A DNA stretch of 64,000 nucleotides. It comes from Candidatus Zipacnadia bacterium. GTDB taxonomy: Bacteria > Armatimonadota > Zipacnadia > Zipacnadales > UBA5352. Under the pieces are notes generated by a model. That model worked only from the letters and a program-made list of their open reading frames with translations, had not been told where the DNA came from and made no database searches. Made by a program: the position numbers and the translations under genes. The stretch lies in NCBI GenBank assembly GCA_029820295.1, contig JALGVA010000002.1, positions 6,069 through 70,068 of the forward strand, in the 5' to 3' direction. The stretch's first letter is position 1; every line of letters begins with the position of its first letter. Shown in pieces: positions 1 to 15,330 of the stretch.

Positions 1-3000
1 GCCCTGCCCGAGGAGCAGACCGTCGTGCGCGTGTGCTTCGACGATGAACGGCTCTACCTGGGCGTCGAGGCCATGGAGGGGGCGCTCGAGCCCGCCCTCA
101 ACATGCTCGAGACGGTGCGCGCCGAGCAAACCATGCGCGACTCCAACGTCTTCAGCGACGATTGCGTCGAGATCTTCCTCGAGACCCCCGAGGGTGAGTA
201 CTACCATCTGGCGGTCAACTCCATCGGCACCCTCTACGACGCGCGCGACCAGGGAGATCCGTGGGACGGCGACTGCGTCGTCGCCGCGCGCCGCGGCACG
301 CACAGCTACGCCGTCGAGCTGTCGGTGAGCTTCGCGAGTCTGGGCGCGGCGCCGGCCGGTGAGTGGCGCGCCAACTTCTGCCGCGAGCGCACCGCGGTGA
401 CTGAGCAGTCCACGTGGTCGGGCCTGCAGGGCGCCTTCCATCAACCCACGGCCTTCGGCGAGCTGCGCTTCGCCGAGGCCGGCCCGGCGATCACCCGCGC
501 GGGTATCGGCATCGGGCCTGACCGGCTGCTGCTGCGCGCCGTGGTGGGCGGGGCCGCCGATGACGCCACCGAGCTGCGCGGCGTGCTCGCGTCGGGCGAC
601 CAGACCACCGCCGCCTCCGCGCAGGGCCCCGGCGAGCACACGCTGGAGCTGACCTTCCCGCAGGCCGTGCAGGAGACCGGACGGGTCGAAGCCAGCTTCG
701 AGCTGGCCCAGGGGGACGCGATCGTGCAGCGCTCGCCGACCATCCCGATGACCCTCGCCACGGGCGTCGCCCGCCTGAGCATTGAGGCGGCCGACGCGCA
801 AGTTGAGGTCTTCGTCGGCGGCGACCCGGTGGCGCTCACCGACGGCACCGCCGACCTGTCACTCGAGCCGGGCCTGAACGTCATCGCCATCCGCGCCGCA
901 GCCGACGGTGACGCCCCCGCGCTGCGCCCGGAGATCAGCTCGGGCGGGCGCGCGCTCCCCGTTGCGTGGCTCCAGCGCGCCGACGCGCCCGCCGACGGCT
1001 GGTTGACCGCGATCGAGCCTGAGGGCTGGGAGACGGTCGCCGGCGATGCCGTGGCGTGGCCCGCCGATGCGCGTGAGCAGTTCCTGGCCTGCGGCATCTA
1101 CGTCGGCCAGCGCGGCCCGCAGATCTTCCCCAAGCTGACGACCTTCTATGCGCCGCGCGGCAGCAGCCAGCTCTTGCGCTTCTATGTGCACATCGCGCCG
1201 GAGGTGCCCGCCGACGGCTACCGTATGATTGTCGAGGCGCCGGCGGCCCTGCCCTACCGCTCCCTCGAGCCCATCAGCGGCATGCCACCGGCCGTCGACT
1301 CGGCCCCGGGGGTGGCCGCCGAGGGGACGCCGATGACGCGCCACACCCTGACCTACGACACCATGCCCGGCTCGGGGATGGAACTGTCGATCCGCTGGGG
1401 CGATGCCCACGAGGCCAGCCTGGGCTACCAGCCCGCCCTGACCGCCGGCGGCACGCACGGCTGGCGGCGCCTCTCCCGCACCGTCGTCGCGCCCGAGGGC
1501 GCGGCGAACGCGCATCCGCTGATCATCAAATGGCAGAACCGGGGCATCACTGGCACCTTCTGGGTGGACAACGTGGTCTTCCGCGAAGCGGACAGTGACG
1601 AGAACCTGCTGAAGATGGGCACCTTCGACGAGCCGGGCTGGCCCGAGAACGCCGGCCGGCTGGCCCAGGAGGGCCCGGACGGCTCACGCTGCTGCAAGAT
1701 CGTGTCCACGCCCGCCAACGCCGACGGCCAGCAGGCGCTGTGGGTGGACCCCGAGGTCTCCGTGCCGGTGGTGCCGGGGCACGAATACGTGGTCGAGATG
1801 GACGTGCGGTGCGACCGGCTCGGCTCGCCCACCTCCCGGCCGCTGTGCGGTCTGCTGCTGGAGGCCCCGCAGGACCTGCCCGAGGGCGATCTGCCGCTGT
1901 TCACCTGGTTCCAGACGCTCGATGGCGTCATCACTGAGCTGCCGCACCCGTCCACGGTAACGGTGCTGCCGCCGCTCAAAGACGTGCGCCCCGAGCGTGC
2001 GCGTATCACCCCGTGCTACTACTCGTCGATCTTCAGCGACCCCGAGGTGGCGCGCGCCTACGCCGACAACTGCTGGGCCTCGGGCATCACCTGGACCTAC
2101 GGCAAGTTCGGCAACAACGTCGTCGAGCACCTCGCGCCGCGCGGCCACGAGGTCATCCTGAGCATCGGCTGGGGTGGCTGGAACCCGATCGGGGAGGAAA
2201 TGCATGAGTTCAGTAAGGCGCACCCCGAGTTCTGGGCCCGCAACTTCGAGGGCCAGGCCGACGAGAGCCACTTCTGCCCGACCTGGTTCCTCTCCGACGA
2301 TGCCGCGCCGGTGCGCGACATGTTCGAGCGCTGGCTGCTCGACGCGGTCAACTCCGCGCCCTACGCCGGCGCCGACTGGGACCTCGAGCAGCCGGTGGTC
2401 GATCCGCCCACCTTCTGCACCTGCGACCGCTGCCTGGCCGCCTTCCGCGAGTTCGCCGGCCTCGCCCCCCAGACCGAGCTGACCCCCGAACTGCTGCTGG
2501 GCGAGTATCGCGCGCGCTGGGTAGACTTCCGCTGCACCCAGAACGCGACCATGGCCGGGCTCATCAAGGTAATGTTGGAGAAGGCGGCGCGGCCGATCGA
2601 GTTCTCGATCTACTCGGGCTTCCAGTCGCTGCGCACCAAGGAGCACTACGGCGTGGACTGGGCCAAGCTCGCACCGCACATCGACATGGGCATCGCGGGC
2701 TACGGCGGCACGGCCGAGACCGTGGCGGCGACCGTCGAGGCCCTGGGCGACACGCCGCTGATGGGCGGCGAGATGTGGTACCTCTCGCACAACAACGACG
2801 CACGCCCGGCGCCGCGCATGGAGACCTGGCGCAACCGGCTGCTGCGCAAGTTCGTGGAGAGCGGCTGCGTCGGCGTGCTCATCTGGTGGCTGCCGCCCAT
2901 GGACGGCGGGGCGTTCTACGCGACCTCAGAGGCGGCGGCGCTCATCGCCGAATACGAGGACTGGCTGGTGCACGAGCGGCGCTGCGACGAGCGCGTGACC

Positions 3001-3171
3001 GTCGATGGGCTGGACGCGCGCGACTGGGCGGCCTTCGAGCGCGACGGCCGGGTGCTGGTGTTGCTGATGAGCTTCGAAGACGAGGCCATCGAGCTGACCG
3101 TGACTGTGGACGGCGAGGCGCGTCCGGTCACCGTGGAGCCCTACGGCACCGAAGTGCTGGTGGTCGAGTAG
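1..3171 (+). CDS. Large carbohydrate-active protein (CBM9/DOMON-like N-terminus, CBM4-like module, C-terminal GH-like TIM barrel); 5'-partial
   Basis: Frame is open from base 1. DDCVEIFL..YYHLAVNSIG..WRANFCR is a CBM9-like pattern; FWVDNVVF and NLLKMGTFD are CBM4-like; CTCDRC motif as in GH42-like barrels. Confidence 0.75.
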   Translation, partial: ALPEEQTVVRVCFDDERLYLGVEAMEGALEPALNMLETVRAEQTMRDSNVFSDDCVEIFLETPEGEYYHLAVNSIGTLYDARDQGDPWDGDCVVAARRGTHSYAVELSVSFASLGAAPAGEWRANFCRERTAVTEQSTWSGLQGAFHQPTAFGELRFAEAGPAITRAGIGIGPDRLLLRAVVGGAADDATELRGVLASGDQTTAASAQGPGEHTLELTFPQAVQETGRVEASFELAQGDAIVQRSPTIPMTLATGVARLSIEAADAQVEVFVGGDPVALTDGTADLSLEPGLNVIAIRAAADGDAPALRPEISSGGRALPVAWLQRADAPADGWLTAIEPEGWETVAGDAVAWPADAREQFLACGIYVGQRGPQIFPKLTTFYAPRGSSQLLRFYVHIAPEVPADGYRMIVEAPAALPYRSLEPISGMPPAVDSAPGVAAEGTPMTRHTLTYDTMPGSGMELSIRWGDAHEASLGYQPALTAGGTHGWRRLSRTVVAPEGAANAHPLIIKWQNRGITGTFWVDNVVFREADSDENLLKMGTFDEPGWPENAGRLAQEGPDGSRCCKIVSTPANADGQQALWVDPEVSVPVVPGHEYVVEMDVRCDRLGSPTSRPLCGLLLEAPQDLPEGDLPLFTWFQTLDGVITELPHPSTVTVLPPLKDVRPERARITPCYYSSIFSDPEVARAYADNCWASGITWTYGKFGNNVVEHLAPRGHEVILSIGWGGWNPIGEEMHEFSKAHPEFWARNFEGQADESHFCPTWFLSDDAAPVRDMFERWLLDAVNSAPYAGADWDLEQPVVDPPTFCTCDRCLAAFREFAGLAPQTELTPELLLGEYRARWVDFRCTQNATMAGLIKVMLEKAARPIEFSIYSGFQSLRTKEHYGVDWAKLAPHIDMGIAGYGGTAETVAATVEALGDTPLMGGEMWYLSHNNDARPAPRMETWRNRLLRKFVESGCVGVLIWWLPPMDGGAFYATSEAAALIAEYEDWLVHERRCDERVTVDGLDARDWAAFERDGRVLVLLMSFEDEAIELTVTVDGEARPVTVEPYGTEVLVVE

Positions 3172-3197
3172 CCGGGCGACGGCGAAGGCAACGGCCT

Positions 3198-3259
3198 GCG
3201 GGGGAGGGCTTCGTGGAAGAAGCCGCCCTCCCCCGCGCCCCCTCCCACGAAGAACTTCC
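3198..3259. repeat. REP-like palindromic element / possible bidirectional terminator
   Basis: Perfect 12-bp stem GCGGGGGAGGGC (3198-3209) / GCCCTCCCCCGC (3225-3236) between convergent genes; tail partly resembles 11611-11640. Confidence 0.55.
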
Positions 3260-3397
3260 GTCTGCGCGCCGAGACTTGAGAGATCGGCCGACGTCTCTTC
3301 ACGCGCGCGACGGCTCGCGCGCAACCGTGACGCCGAGGCGCGCCATCGGCGGTCCGCCGGTACGGGGCGACAGCGGCTGCGGCCAATTGCGCGGCGC

Positions 3398-4276
3398 TCA
3401 CTCGGGGAGCCGCAGGTCGCAGAGATAGACGGTCGCCGTCTCGTCCCGTCCGGCGATGAAGGCCAGCTTCGTGCCGTCGGGCGAGATGACGGGACTGCGC
3501 ACGCCGGTAATGCCGAGTTCCGGCCAGGTGATCTGTCGGCTGCTCAGGCGCATGAAGCCCACGCGCGCGTCCTCCTCGGTCCAGCCGGCGGCGAAGACGA
3601 TCCACTCCGCGCGCGGGCCCCACGCCGGGTCGGCGTGGCGCAGCACGTCGGTGAGCCGCGTCTCCACGACTTCCTCCCAGCGCCGCGCGGTCATCAGCCA
3701 GACCTGGTCGTTCTTGATGATGAGCATGCGCGCTCCGTCAGGGGAGTAGACGGGGCTCCGCTCGTCGCGGTAGGCGAGCCGCTGGGGCTTGGCCTGCCCG
3801 GGGCGCAGGAGGAAGATGCCGGTGCGGTTGTTGGCGGTGTAGGTGCAGGCGATAGTGCGGCCGTCGGCGGCGATCGACGGCTCGGTCAGGTCCTGGCCTT
3901 CATGCAGGCGCCGCGCCGCGGCGTCGCTGGCGAGGTCACGCAGCCAGATGCCCTCCTCGCCCGGCTCGGTGCCGATCCACACCAGCACGCTGCCGCGCAC
4001 ATCCGGCTGGCGGCCGAGGGCCAGCACCTCGGGCTCACCGCCGACCAGCGGCAGGCGCACAATCTCGCGGACGAAGGCGGTGGCGTTCAGGCGGCCCACT
4101 ATCAGCCCCGGGCCACCGGGAGCGTCGGCGCCGAGGAAGCGGCATGACTCGTAGCCACCGTCGTCCGCCAGCACCTGCGGCACGCCGACCTGCGGCTCGT
4201 CCGAGCCCCACGCCAGCGCGGCACCCAGCAGCATTGCGGCCGCGGTCATCGAGCGTCTGATCAAGGCAATGCCCAC
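3398..4276 (-). CDS. TolB-like beta-propeller (PD40 repeat) secreted protein
   Basis: Repeated PSIAADG, PVYSPDG, PAWGPRA and PVISPDG motifs; signal peptide. Start is GTG 4276 or ATG 4249. Confidence 0.8.
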   Translation of the reverse strand: MGIALIRRSMTAAAMLLGAALAWGSDEPQVGVPQVLADDGGYESCRFLGADAPGGPGLIVGRLNATAFVREIVRLPLVGGEPEVLALGRQPDVRGSVLVWIGTEPGEEGIWLRDLASDAAARRLHEGQDLTEPSIAADGRTIACTYTANNRTGIFLLRPGQAKPQRLAYRDERSPVYSPDGARMLIIKNDQVWLMTARRWEEVVETRLTDVLRHADPAWGPRAEWIVFAAGWTEEDARVGFMRLSSRQITWPELGITGVRSPVISPDGTKLAFIAGRDETATVYLCDLRLPE

Positions 4277-4683
4277 CTCCGCAGGGCGACAGTTCCCCGC
4301 ACACCGATGCCCGCCCTGCGCCGACGGTTCATGCGGGCAGGTGTGCCCGCCGGCGAGAAGGGGTAGGATTCCGTTGGCAGGGCGCAAGGGCGGGGGCGGG
4401 CAGGGGTGAACGGCGGGAAGAGCGGAGCGCGCGAGACCCCGCGACGTGCCCGAGAAAGTCGCCTGCCGCGGGAGGTGTGCGGTCGTCCGCGCCGAAAACT
4501 GCAGTAGATCGCCCTGCGCGCCGTCTGAGGGCACGCCTGAACGTGTGTGAGACGTGCGCAGGCTCAAGGACGGTGGGCGTCTCGCCGGCAGGGGATGCGT
4601 GCCGCGCGTGCGGTACGCCCGGTCGCCGGGATGATCATATTGTGCCAACGTGCCGAACTACCCTATGGTAAGGAGGAGGCAGC

Positions 4684-5367
4684 ATGACACGCCGTGGCTT
4701 CACGCTCATCGAGTTGCTGGTCGTGATCGCGATCATCGCCATCCTGGCGGCGATCCTCTTCCCGGTCTTTGCCCGCGCGCGTGAGAAGGCGCGCCAGGCG
4801 AGCTGCCAGAGCAATGAGAAGCAGCTCGCCCTCGGAACTCTGATGTACGCCCAGGACTACGACGAGAGGCTGCCCATGCGCTGGGTGCAGTTCGCTGACG
4901 GCTCGCGGTACTACATCCCGGAGATGATCTACCCGTACATCAAGAACACCCAGCTCTTCGAGTGCCCGAGCGTCTCCACCGACGTCTCCCTGCTCACGCT
5001 CGGCACGATCCCGCTGTCCTACGGCTGGCTGGGCGGCTCGCCCTCGCACCCCGGCGCCAGCGGCACCGCCCCGTGCAGCATCTGCGGCCGCGTGTGCTCG
5101 CAGAATTACCACATCTTCGACGGCTACCGCAGCGTCAAGATGGCGGTCATCGCGGCGCCGGCCAACAATATCATGATCCACGAGGGCTTCTCGGTACTCT
5201 GCCCCGACTACGACAACGGCAATCACACCTTCTGCGACCGCACCGCCATGGAGCAGTATCAGAACCACAACGGCACCAACAACTACGCGTTCGTGGACGG
5301 CCATGTGAAGGCGCTGCAGCAGGTCGATCCCGGCCAGATTACCCCCAGCTCCGACGACGACCGGTAG
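4684..5367 (+). CDS. Prepilin-type N-terminal cleavage/methylation protein, DUF1559 / H-X9-DG family
   Basis: [35 protein letters not shown]; C-terminal [15 protein letters not shown]; strong RBS AAGGAGGAGG. Confidence 0.95.
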
Positions 5368-5390
5368 CGCGCGCCGACGGCAGTCCGCAT

Positions 5391-5424
5391 CGGGCCCGCA
5401 GCCTTGGCCGCGGGCCCGTTCGTT
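5391..5424 (+). terminator. Intrinsic terminator-like hairpin
   Basis: CGGGCCCGC / GCGGGCCCG stem followed by TTCGTT, between convergent genes. Confidence 0.55.
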
Positions 5425-5449
5425 GTCGCGACCGTCCACCAGCACGCGG

Positions 5450-6691
5450 CTACCGGCAGATGACGCGCCGGCCGTCGTGGAGGGCGATGATGGAGGCGTC
5501 GGCGCCCAGGCGCTCCTGAGCCATCGCCAGCGCCCTCTGCAGGTCCGGCGCGGCGTCGGCGAAGGTGCGCTCGATGTCGCGCGCCAGCCGCGAGACCACG
5601 ATCAGTTGCGCCTGCTTCTCGTGCACCACCGACGAGAACAGGAAGCCGGTGGAGCACGGCGCCCAGTGCCACTCGGCCTCGCCCTCGGCGAGCCGCCGCC
5701 GCATCTCGGCGATGATCGCCTGCGGGTCTTCGCTCTCGAGCAGCCGCCGGAAGGGCTCCTCGCCGCCCCAGCCGTCCTCGCACTCGCCCAGCAGGATCAC
5801 CGCACCGCCCTCGCGCACGCACTCCAGCGCCGGCACCAGCGTCTTCTTCGCCTGCACCATGTCGATGTCGTACGGCCACCCCCCCGAGGTGCAGATGACG
5901 ATGTCGGCCTTCTCGCGCACGGCGTGCTCGTAGATCTCCTGCGAGCGCATCGCGCCCTGCCGGTGGGCGGCGATCATGTCCCCGCACACGATCGCGGCGT
6001 AGCTGTCATCGGGGTTGACCACGGCGTCGCAGATGAAGTCTACGCCCACAGCCAGTGCGGCCTCGGTCATGTCCTCGTGCACCGGGTTGCCGTCGAGCAC
6101 GCCCAGCTTGCGTCCTTCGGTCAGGATCAGGAAGTGGTTGTGGGTGATCGACTCATAGGAGGAGACGCCGGGCAGGATCATCTTGCGCCCGCCGGAGAAG
6201 CCGGCGATGTACGAGGGCTCGATGAAGCCGCACACCACGCGCTTGCTGAACTCGCGCACCAGCGGCGAGACCTCGATGGGCGTGCCGCGCGAGGTCTGTC
6301 CGAGCTGCCACTGGGGGCCGCGCGAGTCGGGCTGGAGCACGTCGCTGGTGCCGATGAACTCGTCCAGCTCGGCGGCGGTCATGGGCCGGTGGTTGCCCAG
6401 GCCGATGACGATCTGCGTGCTGGCTCCGAGGGACTCGATGCGCTCGATGAGCGGCCAGAGCATGGGCGAAGGATTGGGGCGGGTGAAATCCACGGTCATC
6501 ACGGCCACGTGGTCGCCCGGGGCGATGACCTGCTCGAGCGGCGGGCCGGCGGGGCCGGCGAGGGCGGCGTCGAGCGCGGCGGGGATGTCCTCGATGCCCT
6601 CGACGCTGGGCAGGCGGATCTCCTCGATCACGCGCTCGCCCGCGACCTCGGCGACCTGCTCACCGTGTCCGTACGCGAAGCGCAGCTCCAT
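5450..6691 (-). CDS. LarA-family (nickel-pincer-dependent lactate racemase domain) protein, divergent active site
   Basis: DFTRP, GLGNHR, AGFSGGRKMILPG, NH and QAKK motifs; RBS GGAGG before ATG 6691. Confidence 0.88.
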   Translation of the reverse strand: MELRFAYGHGEQVAEVAGERVIEEIRLPSVEGIEDIPAALDAALAGPAGPPLEQVIAPGDHVAVMTVDFTRPNPSPMLWPLIERIESLGASTQIVIGLGNHRPMTAAELDEFIGTSDVLQPDSRGPQWQLGQTSRGTPIEVSPLVREFSKRVVCGFIEPSYIAGFSGGRKMILPGVSSYESITHNHFLILTEGRKLGVLDGNPVHEDMTEAALAVGVDFICDAVVNPDDSYAAIVCGDMIAAHRQGAMRSQEIYEHAVREKADIVICTSGGWPYDIDMVQAKKTLVPALECVREGGAVILLGECEDGWGGEEPFRRLLESEDPQAIIAEMRRRLAEGEAEWHWAPCSTGFLFSSVVHEKQAQLIVVSRLARDIERTFADAAPDLQRALAMAQERLGADASIIALHDGRRVICR

Positions 6692-6777
6692 GGTCGTCGC
6701 CTCCGTGACGTGCGTCGGCGGGCGGTCTGACGGCGCCGGCGGGCGACCCGTCCGCACGATGGTGGTGGGGCTACCCG

Positions 6778-7374
6778 CTACCCGACCCTCTCGGCCAGCG
6801 CCTCAACGCTGATCAGCGGCATGCCGTGGTGGCGCGCGAACTCGCGTACCTCGTCGCCGCTGGCCATCTGCCCGACCTCGTTCATCAGCTCGGCGATGGC
6901 GACCACGGGCCGGATGCCCGCGAGGCGCGCCAACGCGATGGCGCCCTCAGTGTGCCCGCGCCGCCGGGTCAGGCCGCCGGGCATGGCGGCCAGGGGGAAG
7001 ACGTGCCCGGGCCGCGAGAAGTCCTCGGGGCGCGAGTCCGGGTCGGCGAGCATGCGCAGCGTGATGGCGCGGTCGAAGGCCGAGGCGCCGGTGGTGGTGC
7101 CGCGCACCGCATCTACCGGTTCGGCGAAGCGCGGCGCGTTGGCCACGCTGTAGCGCGCCGGCAGCAGCGGGATGTCAAGGCGCTGCAGAATATCCTCAGC
7201 CACCGCGACGGTGATCAGCCCGCGCACGTGCGTGGCCAGGAAGTTGACCCGCTCGCCGGTGGCGTGCTCGGCGGCGAGCAGGATGTCCGCCTCATTCTCG
7301 CGCGCGGGGTGGTCCTCGAGCGCGACAAAGCCCCCGGATGCGAGGGCCTGCACGGCCTCTTCAATGCCGGACAT
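6778..7374 (-). CDS. ribB: 3,4-dihydroxy-2-butanone-4-phosphate synthase family protein (stand-alone, divergent)
   Basis: RENEAD, TTGASAFDR, RPGHVFPL and RRGHTE motifs. Confidence 0.88.
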   Translation of the reverse strand: MSGIEEAVQALASGGFVALEDHPARENEADILLAAEHATGERVNFLATHVRGLITVAVAEDILQRLDIPLLPARYSVANAPRFAEPVDAVRGTTTGASAFDRAITLRMLADPDSRPEDFSRPGHVFPLAAMPGGLTRRRGHTEGAIALARLAGIRPVVAIAELMNEVGQMASGDEVREFARHHGMPLISVEALAERVG

Positions 7375-7403
7375 TGCTTGGTCTCGATGCTCCAGTCGGG
7401 GGC

Positions 7404-8177
7404 CTACAGCTCCCGCAGATCGGCCTCCATGGTCTCCAGGTCGACGACGGCGTAGCGGCCGCCGCGCAGCGCGCCCGGGTTCACCACATGGCAGTCCCCG
7501 ATCCGCTCCTGCCCGGCGGCGTCATGGGCGTGTCCGCACACCGCCAGCACCGGCCGGAAGGTGTGGATGGCCTCGTTGACGACGTCGCAGCCCTTGTGCG
7601 CGCTGCCATCGCGGTCCACGACCTCACCGATGGGCGGGGTGTGCAGCACCATGATGCGCGGCCCCTGGACATACTCGAACAGGCGGAAGGAGTGCATGAC
7701 CTCCCACTGCGGATAACGCAGCATGAACAGCTCCTCGCGGTCCACGCGCGTGATCTCACCGCCCAGCCCGCTGATGACGAAGTCGCCGCAGCGCGCCAGC
7801 GAGCGGTGCACGACCTCGAGCGGTGAGTCGGCGCCCTCCTCGGCGAGACTGCAGGTGAGGTAGCGGCCCTCGGGGGCGTCCATGTTGCCCGGCACGCCCA
7901 GAATCGGGAAGGGTGACGGTCGCAGCGTCTGGTGAAACTCGGCGTAGAGCGCGTAGTCCTCGGCCCGCTCGGCCGCCACGGCCTCTCTGTTCATGTAGGG
8001 CGTCCGTCCCTCGCTGCGTGCGGTCATGAACTCAGTGGCGCGGGCCTTGCCGCGCACGATGTCGCCGCAGAACAGGCCGAAGTCGCAGCCGCAATCGGGC
8101 GCGACCCGCATCAGGTCACGCAACGGCTCGAACTCGCCATGCACGTCGCTGAACACCAGCGCCTTCATCGCTGTCAC
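7404..8177 (-). CDS. Calcineurin-like metallophosphoesterase (Icc-related)
   Basis: DVH, GD, PGNMD, HTPP, GHAH and NPG motifs. Start is GTG 8177 (overlapping the upstream TGA) or ATG 8168. Confidence 0.88.
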   Translation of the reverse strand: MTAMKALVFSDVHGEFEPLRDLMRVAPDCGCDFGLFCGDIVRGKARATEFMTARSEGRTPYMNREAVAAERAEDYALYAEFHQTLRPSPFPILGVPGNMDAPEGRYLTCSLAEEGADSPLEVVHRSLARCGDFVISGLGGEITRVDREELFMLRYPQWEVMHSFRLFEYVQGPRIMVLHTPPIGEVVDRDGSAHKGCDVVNEAIHTFRPVLAVCGHAHDAAGQERIGDCHVVNPGALRGGRYAVVDLETMEADLREL

Positions 8178-9163
8178 TCCCCGGGCAGGTCGGCCACAGC
8201 CCGCCGCCCGCTATGCCGCGGCACGGCAAGCTGCAGCCCGATCAGCGTCACCGCCATCCCGACCACCTGAACCATCGTCGGCGCCTCATGCAGCAGCAGA
8301 TAGGCGGCCACGGTCGCCACGATCGGCACGCAGTACTGGAACAGCACCGTCCGTGAGGAGCCGATGGTCGCCACCCCGCGGTACCATACCACGAAAGCAT
8401 AGACTCCGGCCAGCAGCGAGAAGTGCAGCAGGCACACCCAGGTGATCGCGGGCAGGCCCGGCCACTCGACCGCCATGGCCGCGCGCGCGCCGACCGGGAT
8501 GAGCACCACCGCGCCGATGGTGTGGACCCACGCGGTGACCTTCAGCGGCGAGTAGTGGCGCAGCAGCGGCCTGCTGAACACCGCGTAGCACGCCCACAGG
8601 ATGCCCGCAAGCACCATCAGTGCCAGCCCCGGCGCGTGGTACTCGACCTGCTGGGCCCCCTTGAGCCCGCCCATGATGACCGCCGCGATACCGAGGAAGC
8701 CGACGAGCGTGCCCGCCGCCTGGCGCGCCGACAGGCGCTCCCAGCCCAGCACATGGTTGATGATGGCCGCCCAGATGGGCGCGGTGGAGATCAGCAGCGC
8801 CGACTCGGCGGCGAGGGTGTAGAACACCCCGGCCGCGAAGCAGCCCTGGTAGACCACCACGGTCACGAAGGCGAAGCCGATCAGGTAGCGCCAGTGCTCG
8901 CGGCGGATGGTGATGTCGCGTTCGAGCGCCCACAGCGTCAGCAGCAGCGCGGCGACCATCAGCACGTAGCGCACCGAAAGCAGGCCGTAAACCCCGGCCA
9001 GCGGCCCGGCGACGGTGAAGCTCTGCTTGAGCACCTTCAGCGAAATGAAGTTAAAGCCCCAGTTCAGCGGCACCGTGGCCAGCAGCACATAGGTCCACGG
9101 TGACACCGCCGGCTGCGTCGGACGGGCCTCTGTCTGCTCCATGCCCGCTGAAGACACCGACAT
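8174..9163 (-). CDS. DMT/EamA family transporter
   Basis: About 10 hydrophobic segments, WGFNF..K start motif, two EamA repeats; start uncertain (9163 or 9142). Confidence 0.9.
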   Translation of the reverse strand: MSVSSAGMEQTEARPTQPAVSPWTYVLLATVPLNWGFNFISLKVLKQSFTVAGPLAGVYGLLSVRYVLMVAALLLTLWALERDITIRREHWRYLIGFAFVTVVVYQGCFAAGVFYTLAAESALLISTAPIWAAIINHVLGWERLSARQAAGTLVGFLGIAAVIMGGLKGAQQVEYHAPGLALMVLAGILWACYAVFSRPLLRHYSPLKVTAWVHTIGAVVLIPVGARAAMAVEWPGLPAITWVCLLHFSLLAGVYAFVVWYRGVATIGSSRTVLFQYCVPIVATVAAYLLLHEAPTMVQVVGMAVTLIGLQLAVPRHSGRRAVADLPGE

Positions 9164-9214
9164 CCGTCTCGCACCTTCGAGCCGCATCACCTGCCAAATC
9201 GCCTCGGAAGGGTG

Positions 9215-9243
9215 ATTATACGTGCGCGCGGGGAGGACGTCAA
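9215..9243 (-). promoter_or_regulatory. sigma70 promoter of the EamA-phosphoesterase-ribB-larA operon
   Basis: Minus strand reads TTGACG (9243-9238), 17-bp spacer, TATAAT (9220-9215); very unlikely by chance at this GC content. Confidence 0.85.
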
Positions 9244-9656: not shown

Positions 9657-10066
9657 GCTGAGAGCGCGTGCCGGAAACGGATGGTCGGCCATCCCCGTGC
9701 ACAGGATGGTCTGCCCCGCCGCATCTCCCACCGGCGCTGCACCCGCCGGGTTGTTCGAGCCTGCGTGTCCCTTCCACGTCGCTATCCTGCCGCACGCTGT
9801 TCCTCTGTAGCAGACATGGCGCGCGCAACCCACGCGCATGTCAGTTTCTGTCAAAGGTGACGTTTGCGCCAGGGATGAGATGTCCCCCTGAGCTGGTACC
9901 CGAGGTCGCTGCAGCGTGGCAGACCACTGCTGCTGAGCATGTCGCCGGTCCCGGAAAAGCGGGTCCGTTCCGGGGCGGCGCTGGGTCTACGGGCACATGC
10001 ATCCCGAGACCGTTCGGGGCATGCTTGTGGCAGACGTGAGCGTGCCAGGTCGCGAACCGGAGGTGC

Positions 10067-10402
10067 ATGATGCTGCGCGAGATCGTTGTGGGAGCGGTCG
10101 TGCTGGTGCTGATCGCGGGCTGCCAGCCCAAGGCCGGGGGCCTGGTGGGGAAGTGGCAGGCGCACGGGGGCGCAAACAGCATCGAGTTCAGCGACGACGG
10201 ACAAATCACCCAGCACAGGCCCGGGCACATGGTCATGACGTGGTACCGGATCGAGGGGGACCGGATGACTGTCGGCCACGTGGTGAGCGGGATGCCCGAC
10301 GAGACTGTGAAGTTCCAGGTGTCAGGCGACACGCTGACCATCGGCACCTGCCTCGCCCTGGGCACGATGGGTGCGACGACGTTCACACGCATGGAGGATT
10401 AG
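10067..10402 (+). CDS. Small lipoprotein (lipocalin/DUF5640-like)
   Basis: RBS GGAGGTG, lipobox IAGC, LVGKW motif. Confidence 0.75.
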   Translation: MMLREIVVGAVVLVLIAGCQPKAGGLVGKWQAHGGANSIEFSDDGQITQHRPGHMVMTWYRIEGDRMTVGHVVSGMPDETVKFQVSGDTLTIGTCLALGTMGATTFTRMED

Positions 10403-10469
10403 TGCTCACTCGCGCAAGTTCGGGTGCGAAGGCTCCGACAGGCGAGGGCGACTGTCGTACGGGTCTGGT
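10400..10469 (+). repeat. Dispersed repeat copy 1 (left end of MITE-like element)
   Basis: 61/70 ungapped identity to 17080-17149. Confidence 0.8.
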
Positions 10470-11064
10470 CTGTCCTCGATGTGGCGGTGGCCTGCGGGCC
10501 GAGATGGTCGGCAGGACGCAGGTGGACGGCTGTGATGCCTGCGGCGGGCTGTGGTTCGACGCCGATGAGGTGTTCCGCGTGGCGCGGGGTGGCCAGGAGG
10601 CAGTCGCCGGCGCCGAGGCGGTGGTCGAGCCGCCCCCGGCGGGCGCGGGCATGGAGCCGGCGGAGATGGTTTACCCGCGCTGCGACAGCCCACTGTTCGA
10701 CACCGCGGCCGATCCGTCGGACCTGCACCTTGAGGTCAACCCGCACGTGGACCACTGCTGCGAGTGCGGTGGCATCTGGCTGGAGCTGGCGGCGCTGTCG
10801 GTGCTTGTGGACGTGCCGCTGGAATGGCTGCGGGAGTGGCAGGCGCGGCTCGATGCCGCCGTCGCCGGGAACGCTATGAAGGCAGCGGGCGAGGCCCTGT
10901 GCCCGGTCTGCCAGGTCGCCCTGGATGAACGCAGCTACGCGCACGACGAGAGCATATGCATCGACCGCTGCACGGAGTGCGGGGGCACGTGGCTCGATCA
11001 CGGCGAACTGATCGCGGTCAAGCAGGTCTCCATCCGGCAGGACGTGTGGGGCAACCGACCCTGA
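10465..11064 (+). pseudogene. Triple zf-TFIIB (zinc-ribbon) protein, 5' end apparently lost
   Basis: Three repeats of CPxC...D.CxxCGG.W.D; second finger has C->Y; no start codon or RBS, and it abuts the repeat. Confidence 0.55.
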
Positions 11065-11686: not shown

Positions 11687-12817
11687 CTACCGCCCGGAGT
11701 GCAGCCTGACCGCCTCCTCCAGCTTCGCCATCAGCTTGTCATAGGGCTGGTTGAACTTTTCGATGCCCTCGTCCACGAGCCGGGCGGTGACCTGGTCGAT
11801 GTCGATGCCGACCTCGGGTAGCAGCTCCAGCACCTCGCGGGCGTGGTCGAGGCCGTCCTCGATGCGCAGCTTCGGGTCGCCGTGGTCGCGGTAGGCATCG
11901 AGCGTCTCCACGGGCAGGGTGTTCACGGTCTCGGGGCCCATCAGCGGCTCGACGTACTTGACGTCGCTGTACTCGGGGGTCTTGGTGCTGGTGCTCGCCC
12001 ACAGCAGCCGCTGCACGCGCGCCCCATGGTCGGCGAGGATGCGCCAGCGCGTGGCGCCGAAGGTCTCCAGGTACATCTGATAGGCCACCTTCGCCGAGGC
12101 GACGGCGACCTCCCCGCGCAGCTTCGCGGCGATCTCCGCCTCGCGCCCCTCGCCCTGCATCTTCACCTCGAGCATCGAGTCCACGAGCACGTCGATGCGG
12201 CTGAGGAAGAAGCTGGCGACCGACGCGATGCGGCACACCTCCTCACCGCGCGCGACCCGCTGCTCGATGCCGGCGATGTAGGCCTCCGCCACCTCGGCGT
12301 AGCGCGGCAGGCCGAAGAGCAGCGTGATGTTGACGTTGATGCCCTCGCTGATGAGCTGCTCGATGGCGGGCAGGCCCTCGACCGTGGCCGGGACCTTGAT
12401 GAGCAGGTTGGGCCGGTCGACTGCGGCCCACAGTCGGCGGGCCTCAGCCACCGTGCCGGTGGTGTCGCGTGCCAGGTGCGGGTTGACCTCGAGGCTCACG
12501 AAACCGTGCTGGCCATCGGTGCGGTCATAGAGGGGCCGGAGCAGGTCGGTGGCATTCTGCACGTCCTCGACGGTCAGGGTCTCGTAGACCTCCTCCGCCG
12601 ACTTGCCGGCCCGCGCCATCTCAGCGATCGCCTCGTCGTAGTCCTCGGTCTGGCCGATGGCCTTCTCAAAGATCGACGGGTTCGAGGTGACCCCGCGCAC
12701 GCCGTCCTCTTCGATCATCCGCTGCAGGTCCCCGGACACGATCAGCCCGCGCCCGAGGAAGTCCAGCCAGATGCTCTGCCCGAAGTCCTGCGCCTTAACC
12801 AGCGGATTGTCAGTCAT
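11687..12817 (-). CDS. tal: Transaldolase
   Basis: GQSIWLD, GVTSNPSIF, VSLEVNP, IKVPAT, SVASFFLSRID and RLLWASTSTK motifs. Confidence 0.95.
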   Translation of the reverse strand: MTDNPLVKAQDFGQSIWLDFLGRGLIVSGDLQRMIEEDGVRGVTSNPSIFEKAIGQTEDYDEAIAEMARAGKSAEEVYETLTVEDVQNATDLLRPLYDRTDGQHGFVSLEVNPHLARDTTGTVAEARRLWAAVDRPNLLIKVPATVEGLPAIEQLISEGINVNITLLFGLPRYAEVAEAYIAGIEQRVARGEEVCRIASVASFFLSRIDVLVDSMLEVKMQGEGREAEIAAKLRGEVAVASAKVAYQMYLETFGATRWRILADHGARVQRLLWASTSTKTPEYSDVKYVEPLMGPETVNTLPVETLDAYRDHGDPKLRIEDGLDHAREVLELLPEVGIDIDQVTARLVDEGIEKFNQPYDKLMAKLEEAVRLHSGR

Positions 12818-13164
12818 CGCGTTCGCTCCCCGTCTCCAGTGTTCTGATCTTCGCCAGACGTCGCTCCCAGCGCGGCAGCGCCTTCTACTGCGCCGACAGG
12901 AAGGTGCGCACCAGGTCGAGGGCGAGCTGGTTACCCCCCAGCCACCCAGCCAGATCACGTTGATGTTGTCGTCCTCGACTCCCTGGTGGGCCGAGTACAT
13001 GTCGCTGACCAGCGCCGCCCGCACGCCGGCGACCTTGTTGGCCGCCACGCACGCCCCCACCCCGCGGCCGCAGAGCACGATGTCGCGATCGATCTCGCCC
13101 GCCGCGAGATGAGCCACTGCTTGAGCGCGAAGCCGCCGTGGTCCGACGCAAGGCCGATGCGCAT
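12810..13164 (-). pseudogene. rpiB: Ribose-5-phosphate isomerase B pseudogene
   Basis: MRIGLASDHGG start; the DYP segment is deleted with a frameshift; CGRGVGACVAANK..GVRAA; second frameshift and in-frame TAG at 12885-12887. Confidence 0.85.
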
Positions 13165-13206
13165 GGGGCCTCTCCTGCCCTCGGTTGACCACCCGCCAAT
13201 ATGCGC

Positions 13207-15066
13207 TCAGATGACCGCGCGCACCTTCTCCGCGATGGCGTCGGCGGAGATCTCCTCGTAGTCCAGCAGGTCCGCGGGCAGGCCGCTCATCGGGCGCTTG
13301 CGCACCGCCAGGATGTGCACGGCGACCGGATCGGCAGCCAGCGCCGCCGCGACCGCCTCGCCCAGGCCGCCCGCCGGGTAGTGGTCCTCGACGGTGATGA
13401 TCGGCCCGGCCTGCTCTCCGGCCTGCCGCAATGTGTCAACGTCCAGCGGCTGGATGCTGAAGGCGTCGATGACCCGAATCGCCACGCCCTCAGCCGCGAG
13501 GGCATCGTGCGCCCTGAGCGCCTCATGTACGGTCACGCCCGCGCCCACGACGGTCGCGACGTCATCGTCGCTCTGCCGCAGCACCGCGCAGCCGCCGATG
13601 GCGATGTCATCGTCCGGGTCGTAGATGATCGGCGTCTTCATCCGGGTGGTGCGGATGTAGACCATGCCCTCGTGCCGCGCGGCGGCCTCGACCAGCTTCT
13701 CGGTGGAGATCGCGTCGCAGGGATAGAGCACCGCGCAGTCGGGGATGGCGCGGAACATCGCCATGTCCTCCAGGCCCATCTGCGACGGCCCGTCCTGGCC
13801 GATGGAGACGCCCGCGTGCGAGCCCACGACCTTCAGGTTCGCGTCGGAGTACTGGCTCATGCGGAACTGGTCGTGCGCGCGGCTCAGGAAGGCCGAGAAG
13901 CTCGACGCGAAGGGGATGCGCCCGCGCCGCGCCAGCCCCAGCGCGACCCCGGCCATATTCTGCTCGGCGATGTACATCTCGAAGAAGTGATACGGGTGCT
14001 CCTCCTTGAAGCGCTCGGCACGCGTGGAGTTGCCGACCTCGCCGTCCACGCTCACGATCATCGGGAAGGCGTCGAAGATGCGGTTGAGCGCGTTGCCGTA
14101 GGCGGTGCGCGTGGCCACGGCGTCCTCGGTGTACGCGATCTCGCCCACCGGCCTTACCGACGGCGGGGCGGGGCGCAGGTCCTCGGGCATGAGCACCCGG
14201 CCACGCACCGAGGTGTTCACCTCGCCGAGGTCGGCCAGCGCCTCGGGAAGCTGCTCCTCGCTGACCGCCACGCCGTGCCAGCCGTTCTCGTCCTCGAGGA
14301 AGGTGACGCCCTTGCCCTTGATGGTCCTGGCGATGATCATGGTCGGCCGCTCGGTATCCTGCGCCGCCTGTACATAGGCGTCGATGATCTCCGGGAAGGA
14401 GTGGCCATCGATGACGATGGTGTCCCAGCCGAAGGCCGCGATGCGTTCCTCGTAGGCGCCCAGGTCGTGGCCGTACATGGTCTCGCCGCGCTGGCCGAGG
14501 CGGTTCACGTCGATGATGCCGACCAGGTGGTCGAGGCGGTAGTGGGCGGCGAGCTGGATGGCCTCCCACTGTGAGCCCTCGGCCATCTCGCTGTCGCCGA
14601 GCAGCACGTAGGTGCGGAAGGGCAGCTCGTCGAGGTACTTGCCGGCGATCGCCATGCCGACGCCGATCGCCAGGCCCTGTCCGAGCGAGCCGGTGGCGGC
14701 GTCGCAGTAGCGGAAGCGCGGCGTCGGGTGCCCCTCGAGTTCGCTGCCGAACTCGCGATAGGTCATCAACTCATCCTCGGTCAGGCGATCCGCCAGCAGC
14801 CACAGCGAGTAGAACAGGGGCGTGGCGTGGCCCTTGGAGAAGATGAGGCGATCGTTGTTCGGGTGGTCGGGGTCGTCCAGATCGTAGCGGAAGATGCCAC
14901 CGAACAGCAGCCCCACCATGAGATCGGTGGCCGACATGGCCGACGTCGGGTGGCCCGAGCGGGCCTTCGTGGTCATCTTCAGCGCGTAGTAGCGCGCCAG
15001 CCGCGCCATCGCCTCGAGCTGCTCCCGGTCGGCGCCGTGACTGCTGTCCTCCATCGAGCTGGTCAT
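13207..15066 (-). CDS. tkt: Transketolase (single-chain, about 620 aa)
   Basis: SGHPTS, FSKGHA, TGSLGQG, TPP motif GDSE..EG, IAEQNM and GQDGPSQM. Confidence 0.95.
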   Translation of the reverse strand: MTSSMEDSSHGADREQLEAMARLARYYALKMTTKARSGHPTSAMSATDLMVGLLFGGIFRYDLDDPDHPNNDRLIFSKGHATPLFYSLWLLADRLTEDELMTYREFGSELEGHPTPRFRYCDAATGSLGQGLAIGVGMAIAGKYLDELPFRTYVLLGDSEMAEGSQWEAIQLAAHYRLDHLVGIIDVNRLGQRGETMYGHDLGAYEERIAAFGWDTIVIDGHSFPEIIDAYVQAAQDTERPTMIIARTIKGKGVTFLEDENGWHGVAVSEEQLPEALADLGEVNTSVRGRVLMPEDLRPAPPSVRPVGEIAYTEDAVATRTAYGNALNRIFDAFPMIVSVDGEVGNSTRAERFKEEHPYHFFEMYIAEQNMAGVALGLARRGRIPFASSFSAFLSRAHDQFRMSQYSDANLKVVGSHAGVSIGQDGPSQMGLEDMAMFRAIPDCAVLYPCDAISTEKLVEAAARHEGMVYIRTTRMKTPIIYDPDDDIAIGGCAVLRQSDDDVATVVGAGVTVHEALRAHDALAAEGVAIRVIDAFSIQPLDVDTLRQAGEQAGPIITVEDHYPAGGLGEAVAAALAADPVAVHILAVRKRPMSGLPADLLDYEEISADAIAEKVRAVI

Positions 15067-15330
15067 GGGCCTCTCTCCTTCGCGACCGCAGTGGCGCAGC
15101 GCACGCACACGCAGCTTCGCCATCAGTCTACCAGACGCCCCGGTTCCAGTGGAATGGGGACGGACCCCAGATTGCGCCCCGCGAAGCACTGAACCGGCGG
15201 CGCCTGTGTGTGCCTTCGGGCGAGCCGGCATGATTCCTGCAGAGCGGGGAGGGAATGACAGGCGACCGGATGAAGCACACAGTCAGTGCCTGGCCCCGAT
15301 CCAGGAGATTGTGAACCGACTGCCGGTGCG

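Follow-up and report, generated by a model that had tools for sequence, protein, structure and literature searches.

In the 64,000-nucleotide stretch of Candidatus Zipacnadia bacterium DNA analyzed here (hereafter, the window), four consecutive genes on the minus strand encode, in the order of transcription, a membrane transporter of the EamA/DMT (drug/metabolite transporter) family, a metallophosphoesterase (MPE), a stand-alone RibB, and a LarA homologue (LarAH), according to the list of open reading frames (ORFs). This block is real, is conserved in the family of the bacterium, and probably makes up a single transcript. Its best reading is that of the order's riboflavin DMT-RibB operon with two family-specific additions, MPE and LarAH. 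The gene identities, residue patterns, gene order, and promoter observed here probably mark a riboflavin-supply operon that gained two extra genes. The window belongs to a 5.63-Mb metagenome-assembled genome (MAG) of 331 contigs, which is 98.6% complete with contamination given as 4.1%. This genome is labeled G000, and the families of the order are labeled f1 to f7, f1 being that of the window. Where simple ORF calls conflicted on strand or frame, the coordinates of the genome search were taken. The features are as follows.

9215..9243, minus strand: sigma-70-type promoter, TTGACG-17 nt-TATAAT; 11 of 12 positions match, and an equivalent exists in 17 of 17 related loci.
8174..9190, minus strand: EamA/DMT-family membrane transporter (DMT); Pfam EamA 7.9e-34 in two stretches; the ORF starts with GTG at 9190, and a conserved ATG at 9163 is the likelier start.
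7404..8177, minus strand: MPE of the Metallophos_3 family; PF14582 6.8e-64; no signal peptide; 4-bp overlap with the DMT stop codon.
6778..7374, minus strand: stand-alone RibB; PF00926 (DHBP_synthase) 7e-64; TIGR00506 187.6 bits.
5450..6691, minus strand: LarAH; Lar_N 1.9e-37 and LarA_C 1.4e-20; the ORF extends to 6757, and ATG at 6691 is the likelier start.

The stand-alone RibB is most likely the housekeeping riboflavin enzyme and the only intact copy in the genome. It scores 215.3 bits with PF00926 (cut-off 26.4) and exceeds the TIGR00506 cut-off of 177.45. In an alignment with solved RibB structures, it retains the R-E-N-E-x-D, GTTTGxSA, RPGH, and RRGHTE motifs as well as the C-terminal Glu. 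Its R-E-N-E-A-D and RRGHTE sequences align with the RENEGD and RRGHTE of PDB entries 7uez, 1tks, and 3h07, and the equivalents of Glu39, Glu41, and His154 (Vibrio cholerae numbering) are all present. The Thr107-Thr108-Gly109 loop reads GTTTGASA. The C-E-[ILV] motif, whose C-terminal Glu I take from the mutagenesis literature to be catalytic, reads AELM. The substitutions in this RibB are DDED to EDHPA before the RENE loop, Gly to Ala, and Cys to Thr or Ala, and they fall outside the known catalytic residues. For the V. cholerae enzyme, Glu39 and His154 are described as the Mg ligands (PMC9305975). Glu39, Glu41, and His154 have been called catalytic, with activity lost upon mutation, and Thr108 has been described as important and strictly conserved in RibB (PMC5228156).

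The genome has two PF00926 matches. The second is a 424-aa frame encoding a RibBA on contig C147, where a ribD-ribE-ribBA-ribH operon spans approximately 2607-6068 (locus L001, 2878-6453). The RibA half of this RibBA is intact (TIGR00505, 234.9 bits versus a cut-off of 205.85). Its N-terminal RibB half, compared with the Mycobacterium tuberculosis RibBA (PDB 4i14), reads DDEAETSTGD instead of DDEDRENEGD and AQIL instead of CEIV, and it has GLETGDTA at the TTG loop. This N-terminal domain has lost the Mg ligand Glu39, Glu41, and the C-terminal Glu.

The same pattern was found throughout the order. In a comparison of 23 RibBA N-terminal domains and 29 stand-alone RibBs from families f1 to f7, none of the 23 N-terminal domains had Glu at either position 39 or 41 or at the C-terminal site, while all three were present in every one of the 29 stand-alone RibBs. 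Nearly every genome of the order holds one stand-alone RibB and one RibBA. In the phylum sample, two PF00926 matches were found in 18 of the 19 genomes of the order, while a single match is usual outside it. Armatimonadota outside the order mostly have a single RibBA with a higher score, and all ten RibBAs sampled there are canonical, including three from the same class. I infer from these residues that the RibBA N-terminal domain of the order is inactive as a synthase of DHBP (3,4-dihydroxy-2-butanone 4-phosphate). Since the residues lost there are kept in the window RibB, the latter is likely to be the housekeeping DHBP synthase. On the simplest reading, a stand-alone ribB would have taken over DHBP synthesis at the base of the order, and the fused domain would then have decayed.

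The promoter and gene spacing were as described in the original prediction, which had been made from the sequence alone. The 4-bp overlap of the DMT and MPE genes and the following gaps of 29 and 86 bp are exact with the likely starts. The promoter named there is the sole sigma-70-like site between positions 5200 and 9700 (one found versus 0.3 expected from shuffles). A start of the DMT gene at the ATG at 9163 is more likely as judged from the leader alignment, and this conserved ATG sets the leader of the window at about 45 nt, the length that had been given. In the related loci, a TTGAC[GTA]-17/18-TATA[AC]T sequence precedes the DMT gene in 17 of 17 cases; 15 of these promoters match 11 or 12 of the 12 positions and two match 10. 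Such conservation in DNA of 61-69% G+C argues for a real promoter. A minus-strand terminator-like site was not found inside the four-gene cluster. The single promoter and the lack of an internal terminator in the window favor the inclusion of LarAH in the operon. LarAH is probably co-transcribed in the window, although it is probably not an obligatory part of the module. Also in agreement with the prediction, no further rib or lar genes were found on the contig of the window, and a separate ribBA and the larB, larC, and larE genes were found on other contigs.

The DMT-RibB pair is old and ancestral to the order, and its surroundings are not conserved. The window DMT has two EamA repeats (117.3 bits with Pfam). 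In the phylum search, its orthologues in families f5 and f6 (46-55% identical) lie directly upstream of the stand-alone RibB gene on the same strand in 16 of 16 cases. In six f4 genomes, a 33-37% identical DMT adjoins RibB in a convergent orientation. In total, an adjacent DMT was found by tblastn at 13 of the 18 stand-alone RibB loci outside f1. The gene content downstream of RibB varies by family (glycoside hydrolases, STAND NTPases, and polysaccharide export genes), and the pair occurs without MPE or LarAH in the sister families. Because the pairing is ancestral to the order, the DMT most likely moves a flavin or a precursor. Transporters clustering with rib genes have been reported to be riboflavin transporters, for example RfnT (PMC4418817). 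By this analogy, the best guess for the DMT substrate is riboflavin, a related flavin, or a precursor. A second DMT fragment, 70-73% identical to the window DMT, was found in the same genome on the 2372-bp contig C4 (1577-2371). It has one in-frame TAG, runs off the contig end, and probably comes from a second, related population in the bin.

The whole block is a feature of family f1. A scan of the MPE neighborhoods, with one genome per species, gave 63 loci, consisting of 17 f1-type loci (59-100% identity) and 46 distant loci (partial matches, or full-length matches of no more than 42% identity) from other phyla and archaea. The DMT gene lies directly upstream of the MPE gene in 17 of the 17 f1-type loci. 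RibB follows MPE in 16 of them, and the remaining locus stops at a contig end. In 13 of the 17, LarAH comes next after RibB, most of the gaps being 20-160 bp. Genus g4 has a longer spacing between RibB and LarAH (320-530 bp) or a LarAH that has moved away; in G012 and G013, DMT-MPE-RibB is kept and LarAH is at another locus. Thus, the gene-neighborhood search suggested by the original prediction did find the co-oriented four-gene block conserved, namely in this family. One genome, G008, has a copy of the block (L014/L064, contig C76) that is 100% identical at LarAH, MPE, and DMT and 99% at RibB. The same genome has a second RibB-LarAH copy on contig C177, with an 82% identical LarAH, and its contamination is given as 8%. 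G008 may be a mixed bin, and counts of independent genomes should allow for this.

The MPE is an f1-specific insertion between DMT and RibB. Of 401 sampled Armatimonadota genomes, 12 have full-length Metallophos_3 matches (209-237 bits), and these 12 all belong to f1; the remaining matches in this phylum are partial (at most 52 bits). The window MPE matches profile positions 6-257 of 259 with 216.1 bits. Its residues D11, H13, D39, N98, H179, H216, and H218, invariant in 20 homologues, make up a complete dinuclear metal site; I take the motifs to be those named DxH, GD, GN, H, and GHxH. The family motif is GNMD, which lacks the His of the usual GNH(D/E). The PDB matches of the MPE are 2yvt (5.8e-28) and 1uf3 (1.7e-17), both structural-genomics entries deposited as hypothetical proteins. 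The role of phosphatase for 5-amino-6-ribitylamino-uracil 5'-phosphate (ARAPDP) in riboflavin synthesis is reported to be taken by unrelated enzymes across organisms (PMC12051542). Since the gene is inserted with a 4-bp overlap into an operon of a riboflavin enzyme, a flavin-pathway phosphatase is the most economical guess.

The neighborhoods of the distant Metallophos_3 genes are heterogeneous. Radical-SAM genes occur in nine of the 21 annotated loci among the 46, and the distant genes of Zixibacteria, Thermococci, Theionarchaea, and others often adjoin small activase-like radical-SAM genes. The loci with radical-SAM or creatininase-family neighbors are L081, L084, L085, L087, L088, L099, L100, L101, and L106. 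Two further candidate links were rejected. One was to F420 via lactate and ARAPD; the genome gave no CofH match. The other was a relationship of the MPE to the Aquifex riboflavin phosphatase. The best PDB match of the MPE is indeed Aquifex aq_1956, although the Aquifex phosphatase is a histidine-family enzyme. The main text of the paper on that phosphatase makes no mention of aq_1956 or of metallophosphoesterases.

LarAH is very likely an active nickel-pincer enzyme. It keeps the equivalents of Asp72, Arg75, His108, Lys184, His200, Gln295, and Lys298, and its VDFTRP, GNHR, GGRK, and NH motifs, aligned with PDB 2yjg and 6d6z, are invariant in the orthologues. In LarA, Asp72, Arg75, Lys184, and His200 are described as cofactor residues and His108 as a catalytic residue (PMC11770544). 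LarAH is the only Lar_N gene in the genome, where larB, larC, and larE are kept (LarB, 291.2 bits versus a cut-off of 175; LarE, 298.8 versus 150; LarC, 430 bits with PF01969). LarAH is very likely to be active because it is the sole LarA-family gene in a genome that keeps these three genes.

The second catalytic base, His174, is replaced by Ser in LarAH, which reads EPSY where 2yjg has EPHF and 6d6z has LELHY. Ser occupies this position in all 16 sequences of at least 75% identity. At 52-62% identity, the residue is His in seven of eight sequences and Gln in the other, and at 38-42% identity it is Thr in six of six. In a set of 1.8 billion proteins, His stands at position 174 in 132 of the 150 best-matching cluster representatives; of the 13 closest, ten have Thr, Ser, or Asn. 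A quick tree separated LarAH from the two-His LarAs and put it into a clade with good support in which S, T, N, Q, and H types are mixed. In this tree, the f1 Ser group is the sister of an f6/f3 His/Gln group with Thr-type outgroups. Thus, no claim is made that Ser arose when LarAH joined RibB. The His-type LarAH sisters in other families adjoin MazG-like, CBM9-like, and M28 peptidase genes and have neither DMT nor MPE beside them. G057 (assigned to f5) has a Ser-type copy with 75% identity on a 2.7-kb contig; this copy may be contamination.

LarAH scores below the cut-off of every curated model compared: NF033504 (256.5 bits versus 460), NF052593 (293.3 versus 500), NF052595 (243.4 versus 462), and NF052592 (44.6 versus 740). 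The best of these models is NF052593 (LarAH6). LarAH is probably not a lactate racemase, as the original prediction had anticipated; it lacks the second catalytic His and is below all the curated LarA-subfamily cut-offs. Desguin et al. suggested that a single-base LarA may return the hydride elsewhere (PMC7583248). By analogy, LarAH with its single base probably handles one enantiomer of a 2-hydroxy acid or returns the hydride elsewhere. Where LarA has Val297, LarAH has a Lys that adjoins the conserved Lys298 (VQAKK). The Val297 position is a specificity determinant in the LarA family (PMC7583248), and a Lys residue there makes it plausible that the substrate carries a second anionic group.

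Putting these together, the favored mechanism would be as follows. The window RibB would turn ribulose 5-phosphate into DHBP and formate for lumazine synthase. It would be needed because the RibB half of RibBA has lost its metal-binding and catalytic glutamates order-wide. The strong conserved promoter would transcribe RibB together with the DMT, which would move riboflavin, a related flavin, or a precursor. The cytoplasmic Metallophos_3 MPE, inserted between the two genes in f1, would supply a flavin phosphatase step, most plausibly on ARAPDP. LarAH, downstream in most f1 members, would be a nickel-pincer enzyme with a single catalytic His that acts on one enantiomer of a 2-hydroxy acid, and it would not be obligatory. 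The joint version of this proposal, in which Metallophos_3 is an ARAPDP phosphatase, the DMT represents a new flavin transporter family, and LarA enzymes are metabolically linked to the riboflavin genes, is doubtful. The LarA-riboflavin link is proposed because LarA genes recur beside rib loci in four arrangements in the order.

Several observations weigh against the reading as a riboflavin-supply operon with two additions. The RibBA N-terminal domain scores 185-188 bits on TIGR00506, equal to the stand-alone RibB. A degenerate domain thus passes this model, and the profile score alone does not show RibB activity. The domain is also well conserved and keeps RPGH and GHTE, and 19 of the 23 N-terminal domains have Asp or Glu one residue ahead of the lost Glu39. 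From these residues, it is possible that the domain retains some activity or a regulatory role. A tie of the operon to flavin through a flavin mononucleotide (FMN) riboswitch is absent: no FMN riboswitch or any other Rfam family was found at the gathering score in the window, and no FMN riboswitch (RF00050) was found in 11 related loci, including the genome's own ribBA locus, or in the whole genome. Since the whole genome has no FMN riboswitch, its absence upstream of the operon is uninformative. The DMT has no match above the cut-off among the curated transporter models, and a protein atlas search with it gave generic DMT clusters only. As for the MPE, the best guess that it is a flavin-metabolism phosphatase, most plausibly dephosphorylating ARAPDP, comes from the gene position alone. 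The GNMD-type pattern is presumably more typical of diesterases. RibB, LarA, or DMT genes were found within 7 kb of the distant Metallophos_3 genes in none of the 46 loci. A link to the archaeal riboflavin enzyme ArfB via the creatininase-family neighbors in three archaeal loci was rejected; these neighbors reach 32-33 bits where the ArfB cut-off is 180, and they are closer to MftE.

LarAH may also be more than a passenger, as is suggested by LarA-family genes lying 2-7 kb from rib genes in three further lineages with differing arrangements. In genus g12 of f5 (L127, L128, L130, and L131), DMT-RibB is followed by a Pfam-less protein, a ThiD-like kinase, and then a two-His LarA paralogue. In genus g15 of f2 (L132 and L133), the same two-His paralogue lies upstream of ribD-ribE-ribBA-ribH, and in G027 of f6 (L053), a His-type LarAH lies two genes ahead of ribE-ribBA-ribH. 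These genes belong to two different orthogroups, and the rough chance expectation is about 0.4 lineages among about 27 genera. The count is post hoc and was made on related genomes; it is thus a lead and not a result. No biochemistry is known to join the LarA and riboflavin pathways, and no paper linking LarA, RibB, and a metallophosphoesterase was found in a limited literature search.

The original prediction had proposed that all four genes form one self-contained pathway outside riboflavin synthesis and lactate racemization, in which RibB rearranges a sugar phosphate, MPE dephosphorylates it, LarAH isomerizes the product by hydride transfer, and DMT exports or imports it. The contiguity of the four genes behind a conserved promoter in 13 of the 17 f1-type loci, with mostly short RibB-LarAH gaps (20-160 bp), would fit such a pathway, as would the restriction of both the MPE and the LarAH adjacency to f1 and the position of LarAH as the sole LarA-family client of LarB, LarC, and LarE in the genome. 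However, it is very unlikely. Because RibB is the only intact copy and is canonical in its catalytic residues, riboflavin synthesis needs it. DMT-RibB predates both the MPE and the adjacency of LarAH, and LarAH stands apart from DMT-MPE-RibB in G012 and G013. LarAH keeps the carboxylate-binding Arg75, Gln295, and Lys298, while dephosphorylated DHBP has no carboxylate, and Ser/Thr variants of the LarAH clade occur elsewhere without RibB nearby. Of the active-site substitutions claimed for both core enzymes, that of LarAH (Ser at His174) stands, and that of RibB does not, since the changes in the latter lie outside the catalytic residues. Nor is RibB likely to act outside riboflavin synthesis; it keeps the catalytic residues lost in 23 of 23 RibBA N-terminal domains and is effectively the genome's only RibB, being its only intact copy. 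With DMT-RibB older than the MPE and LarAH adjacency and with LarAH separable, a single self-contained pathway is not the most economical account. The case for an undescribed pathway is much weaker than had been proposed.

Another idea is that MPE and LarAH together form a separate pair of enzymes for a phosphorylated or otherwise doubly anionic 2-hydroxy acid, and that this pair landed in the strongly expressed DMT-RibB operon of the family ancestor, while DMT and RibB serve riboflavin independently. Both genes hold f1-specific positions, and the Lys at the Val297 position of LarAH makes a second anionic group on its substrate plausible. It is nevertheless unlikely: when the block splits, MPE stays with DMT and RibB rather than with LarAH, orthologues and His-type sisters of LarAH occur in families without a full-length Metallophos_3, and a LarA gene lies within 7 kb in none of the 46 distant MPE loci. 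The block could also be merely the inherited gene order of one family, with MPE and LarAH as unrelated housekeeping genes sharing the DMT-RibB transcript. Every complete example comes from one family, and the flanks are partly syntenic, with a DUF1559 gene downstream in the window, G001, and G006, and URO-D and phosphorylase genes upstream in G001, G002, and G004. In addition, genus g4 has the wide RibB-LarAH gap of 320-530 bp or a relocated LarAH. Inheritance alone is an improbable account, however, because in 17 of 17 loci MPE is placed, with a 4-bp overlap, within a two-gene operon older than itself, the core persists while the flanks differ among genera, and three other lineages of the order have LarA genes close to rib genes, in other arrangements. 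Thus, the riboflavin-supply operon with two added genes is the explanation favored here.

These results bear on the metabolic reconstruction of uncultured Armatimonadota MAGs. Because the RibBA N-terminal domain is above the TIGR00506 cut-off, annotation pipelines will call RibBA bifunctional, and the stand-alone RibB will seem a spare; the residue pattern reverses this assignment order-wide. An order-wide degenerate RibB domain backed by a stand-alone RibB is new, as is the conserved DMT partner of RibB, a candidate flavin transporter. The gene order also gives a new positional clue to Metallophos_3. If the clue is true, it would be the first function for PF14582, at a riboflavin step without a universal enzyme. 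The Ser/Thr-type single-His LarA clade is a further lead, and its member in G000 is the only LarA-family protein there to use a complete pathway of LarB, LarC, and LarE. This clade is counted here as new, although it may already be listed in Dataset S2 of PMC7583248.

Other genes in the window were also observed. About 2.5 kb upstream of the operon promoter and on the same strand, a region at 11687-15231 contains a transketolase gene (13207-15231) followed by an ORF for RpiB and transaldolase. The first 85 residues of this ORF match a part of RpiB (profile positions 47-107 of 138) and the rest is transaldolase, so it looks like a truncated or frameshifted rpiB ahead of tal. These transketolase, rpiB, and tal pentose-phosphate genes produce the RibB substrate. 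At the other end, a gene with a prepilin-type N-methylation signal and DUF1559 (4684-5367, plus strand) converges on the end of the operon, and G001 and G006 have the same type of gene downstream. The plus strand at 25-3171 encodes a 1048-aa protein with a weak CBM9 match; CBM9-like genes also flank the His-type LarAH in f6. Two ORFs on the plus strand, 9997-11064 and 10067-10402, overlap in different frames and both have Pfam matches, namely a TFIIB-type zinc ribbon (9.6e-24) and DUF5640 (2.1e-06, just under the cut-off).

Among known systems, RibBX of Shewanella and Aeromonas is the closest to the RibB-RibBA arrangement. It is described as combining a functional RibB domain with an inactive RibA domain, for which a separate ribA substitutes, with ribBX in an operon and ribA monocistronic (PMC10012899). 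As there, one half of a fusion seems active and a separate single-domain gene supplies the other half. In contrast, the arrangement found here, known from sequence in one Armatimonadota order, is the mirror image, with a degenerate RibB half for which a stand-alone ribB would compensate, and it extends the RibBX idea in that direction. As for the transporter, RibN and ImpX are DMT-type proteins. The DMT-RibB pair resembles the RfnT, RibN, ImpX, and RibXY systems, in which a transporter gene is reported to be conserved beside a riboflavin biosynthesis gene in prototrophs (PMC4418817), but the window operon has no FMN riboswitch.

The MPE would resemble the described ARAPDP phosphatases, which are the HAD enzymes YigB/YbjI, YcsE/YwtE/YitU, and AtPyrP2 and the Aquifex histidine-family enzyme (PMC12051542), as a cytoplasmic phosphohydrolase for a step without a universal enzyme. 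The likeness is one of gene position, and the fold differs, being that of the calcineurin-like Metallophos_3. PF14582 has no member with an assigned function, and its PDB entries 2yvt and 1uf3 are hypothetical proteins. LarAH is similar to the single-His enzymes LarA_Sp and LarA_Bw (groups 14, 15, and 17 of Desguin) in keeping His108, the cofactor-linking Lys, and the Ni-binding His while lacking the His174 base (PMC12611868). That Asn-type subfamily is described as having Asn at 174, Lys in place of Arg75, and about 500 aa (PMC12611868). LarAH differs in having Ser, a length of about 413 aa, and Arg75, Gln295, and Lys298 all kept; it fails the subfamily model NF052592 (LarAH14/15/16), matching it in the N-terminal part only. 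The malate racemase Mar2/LarAH6 provides both the best PDB match (6d6z, 1.6e-53) and the best NCBIfam model (NF052593), but LarAH falls well below the cut-off of that model (293 bits versus 500) and lacks the second catalytic His.

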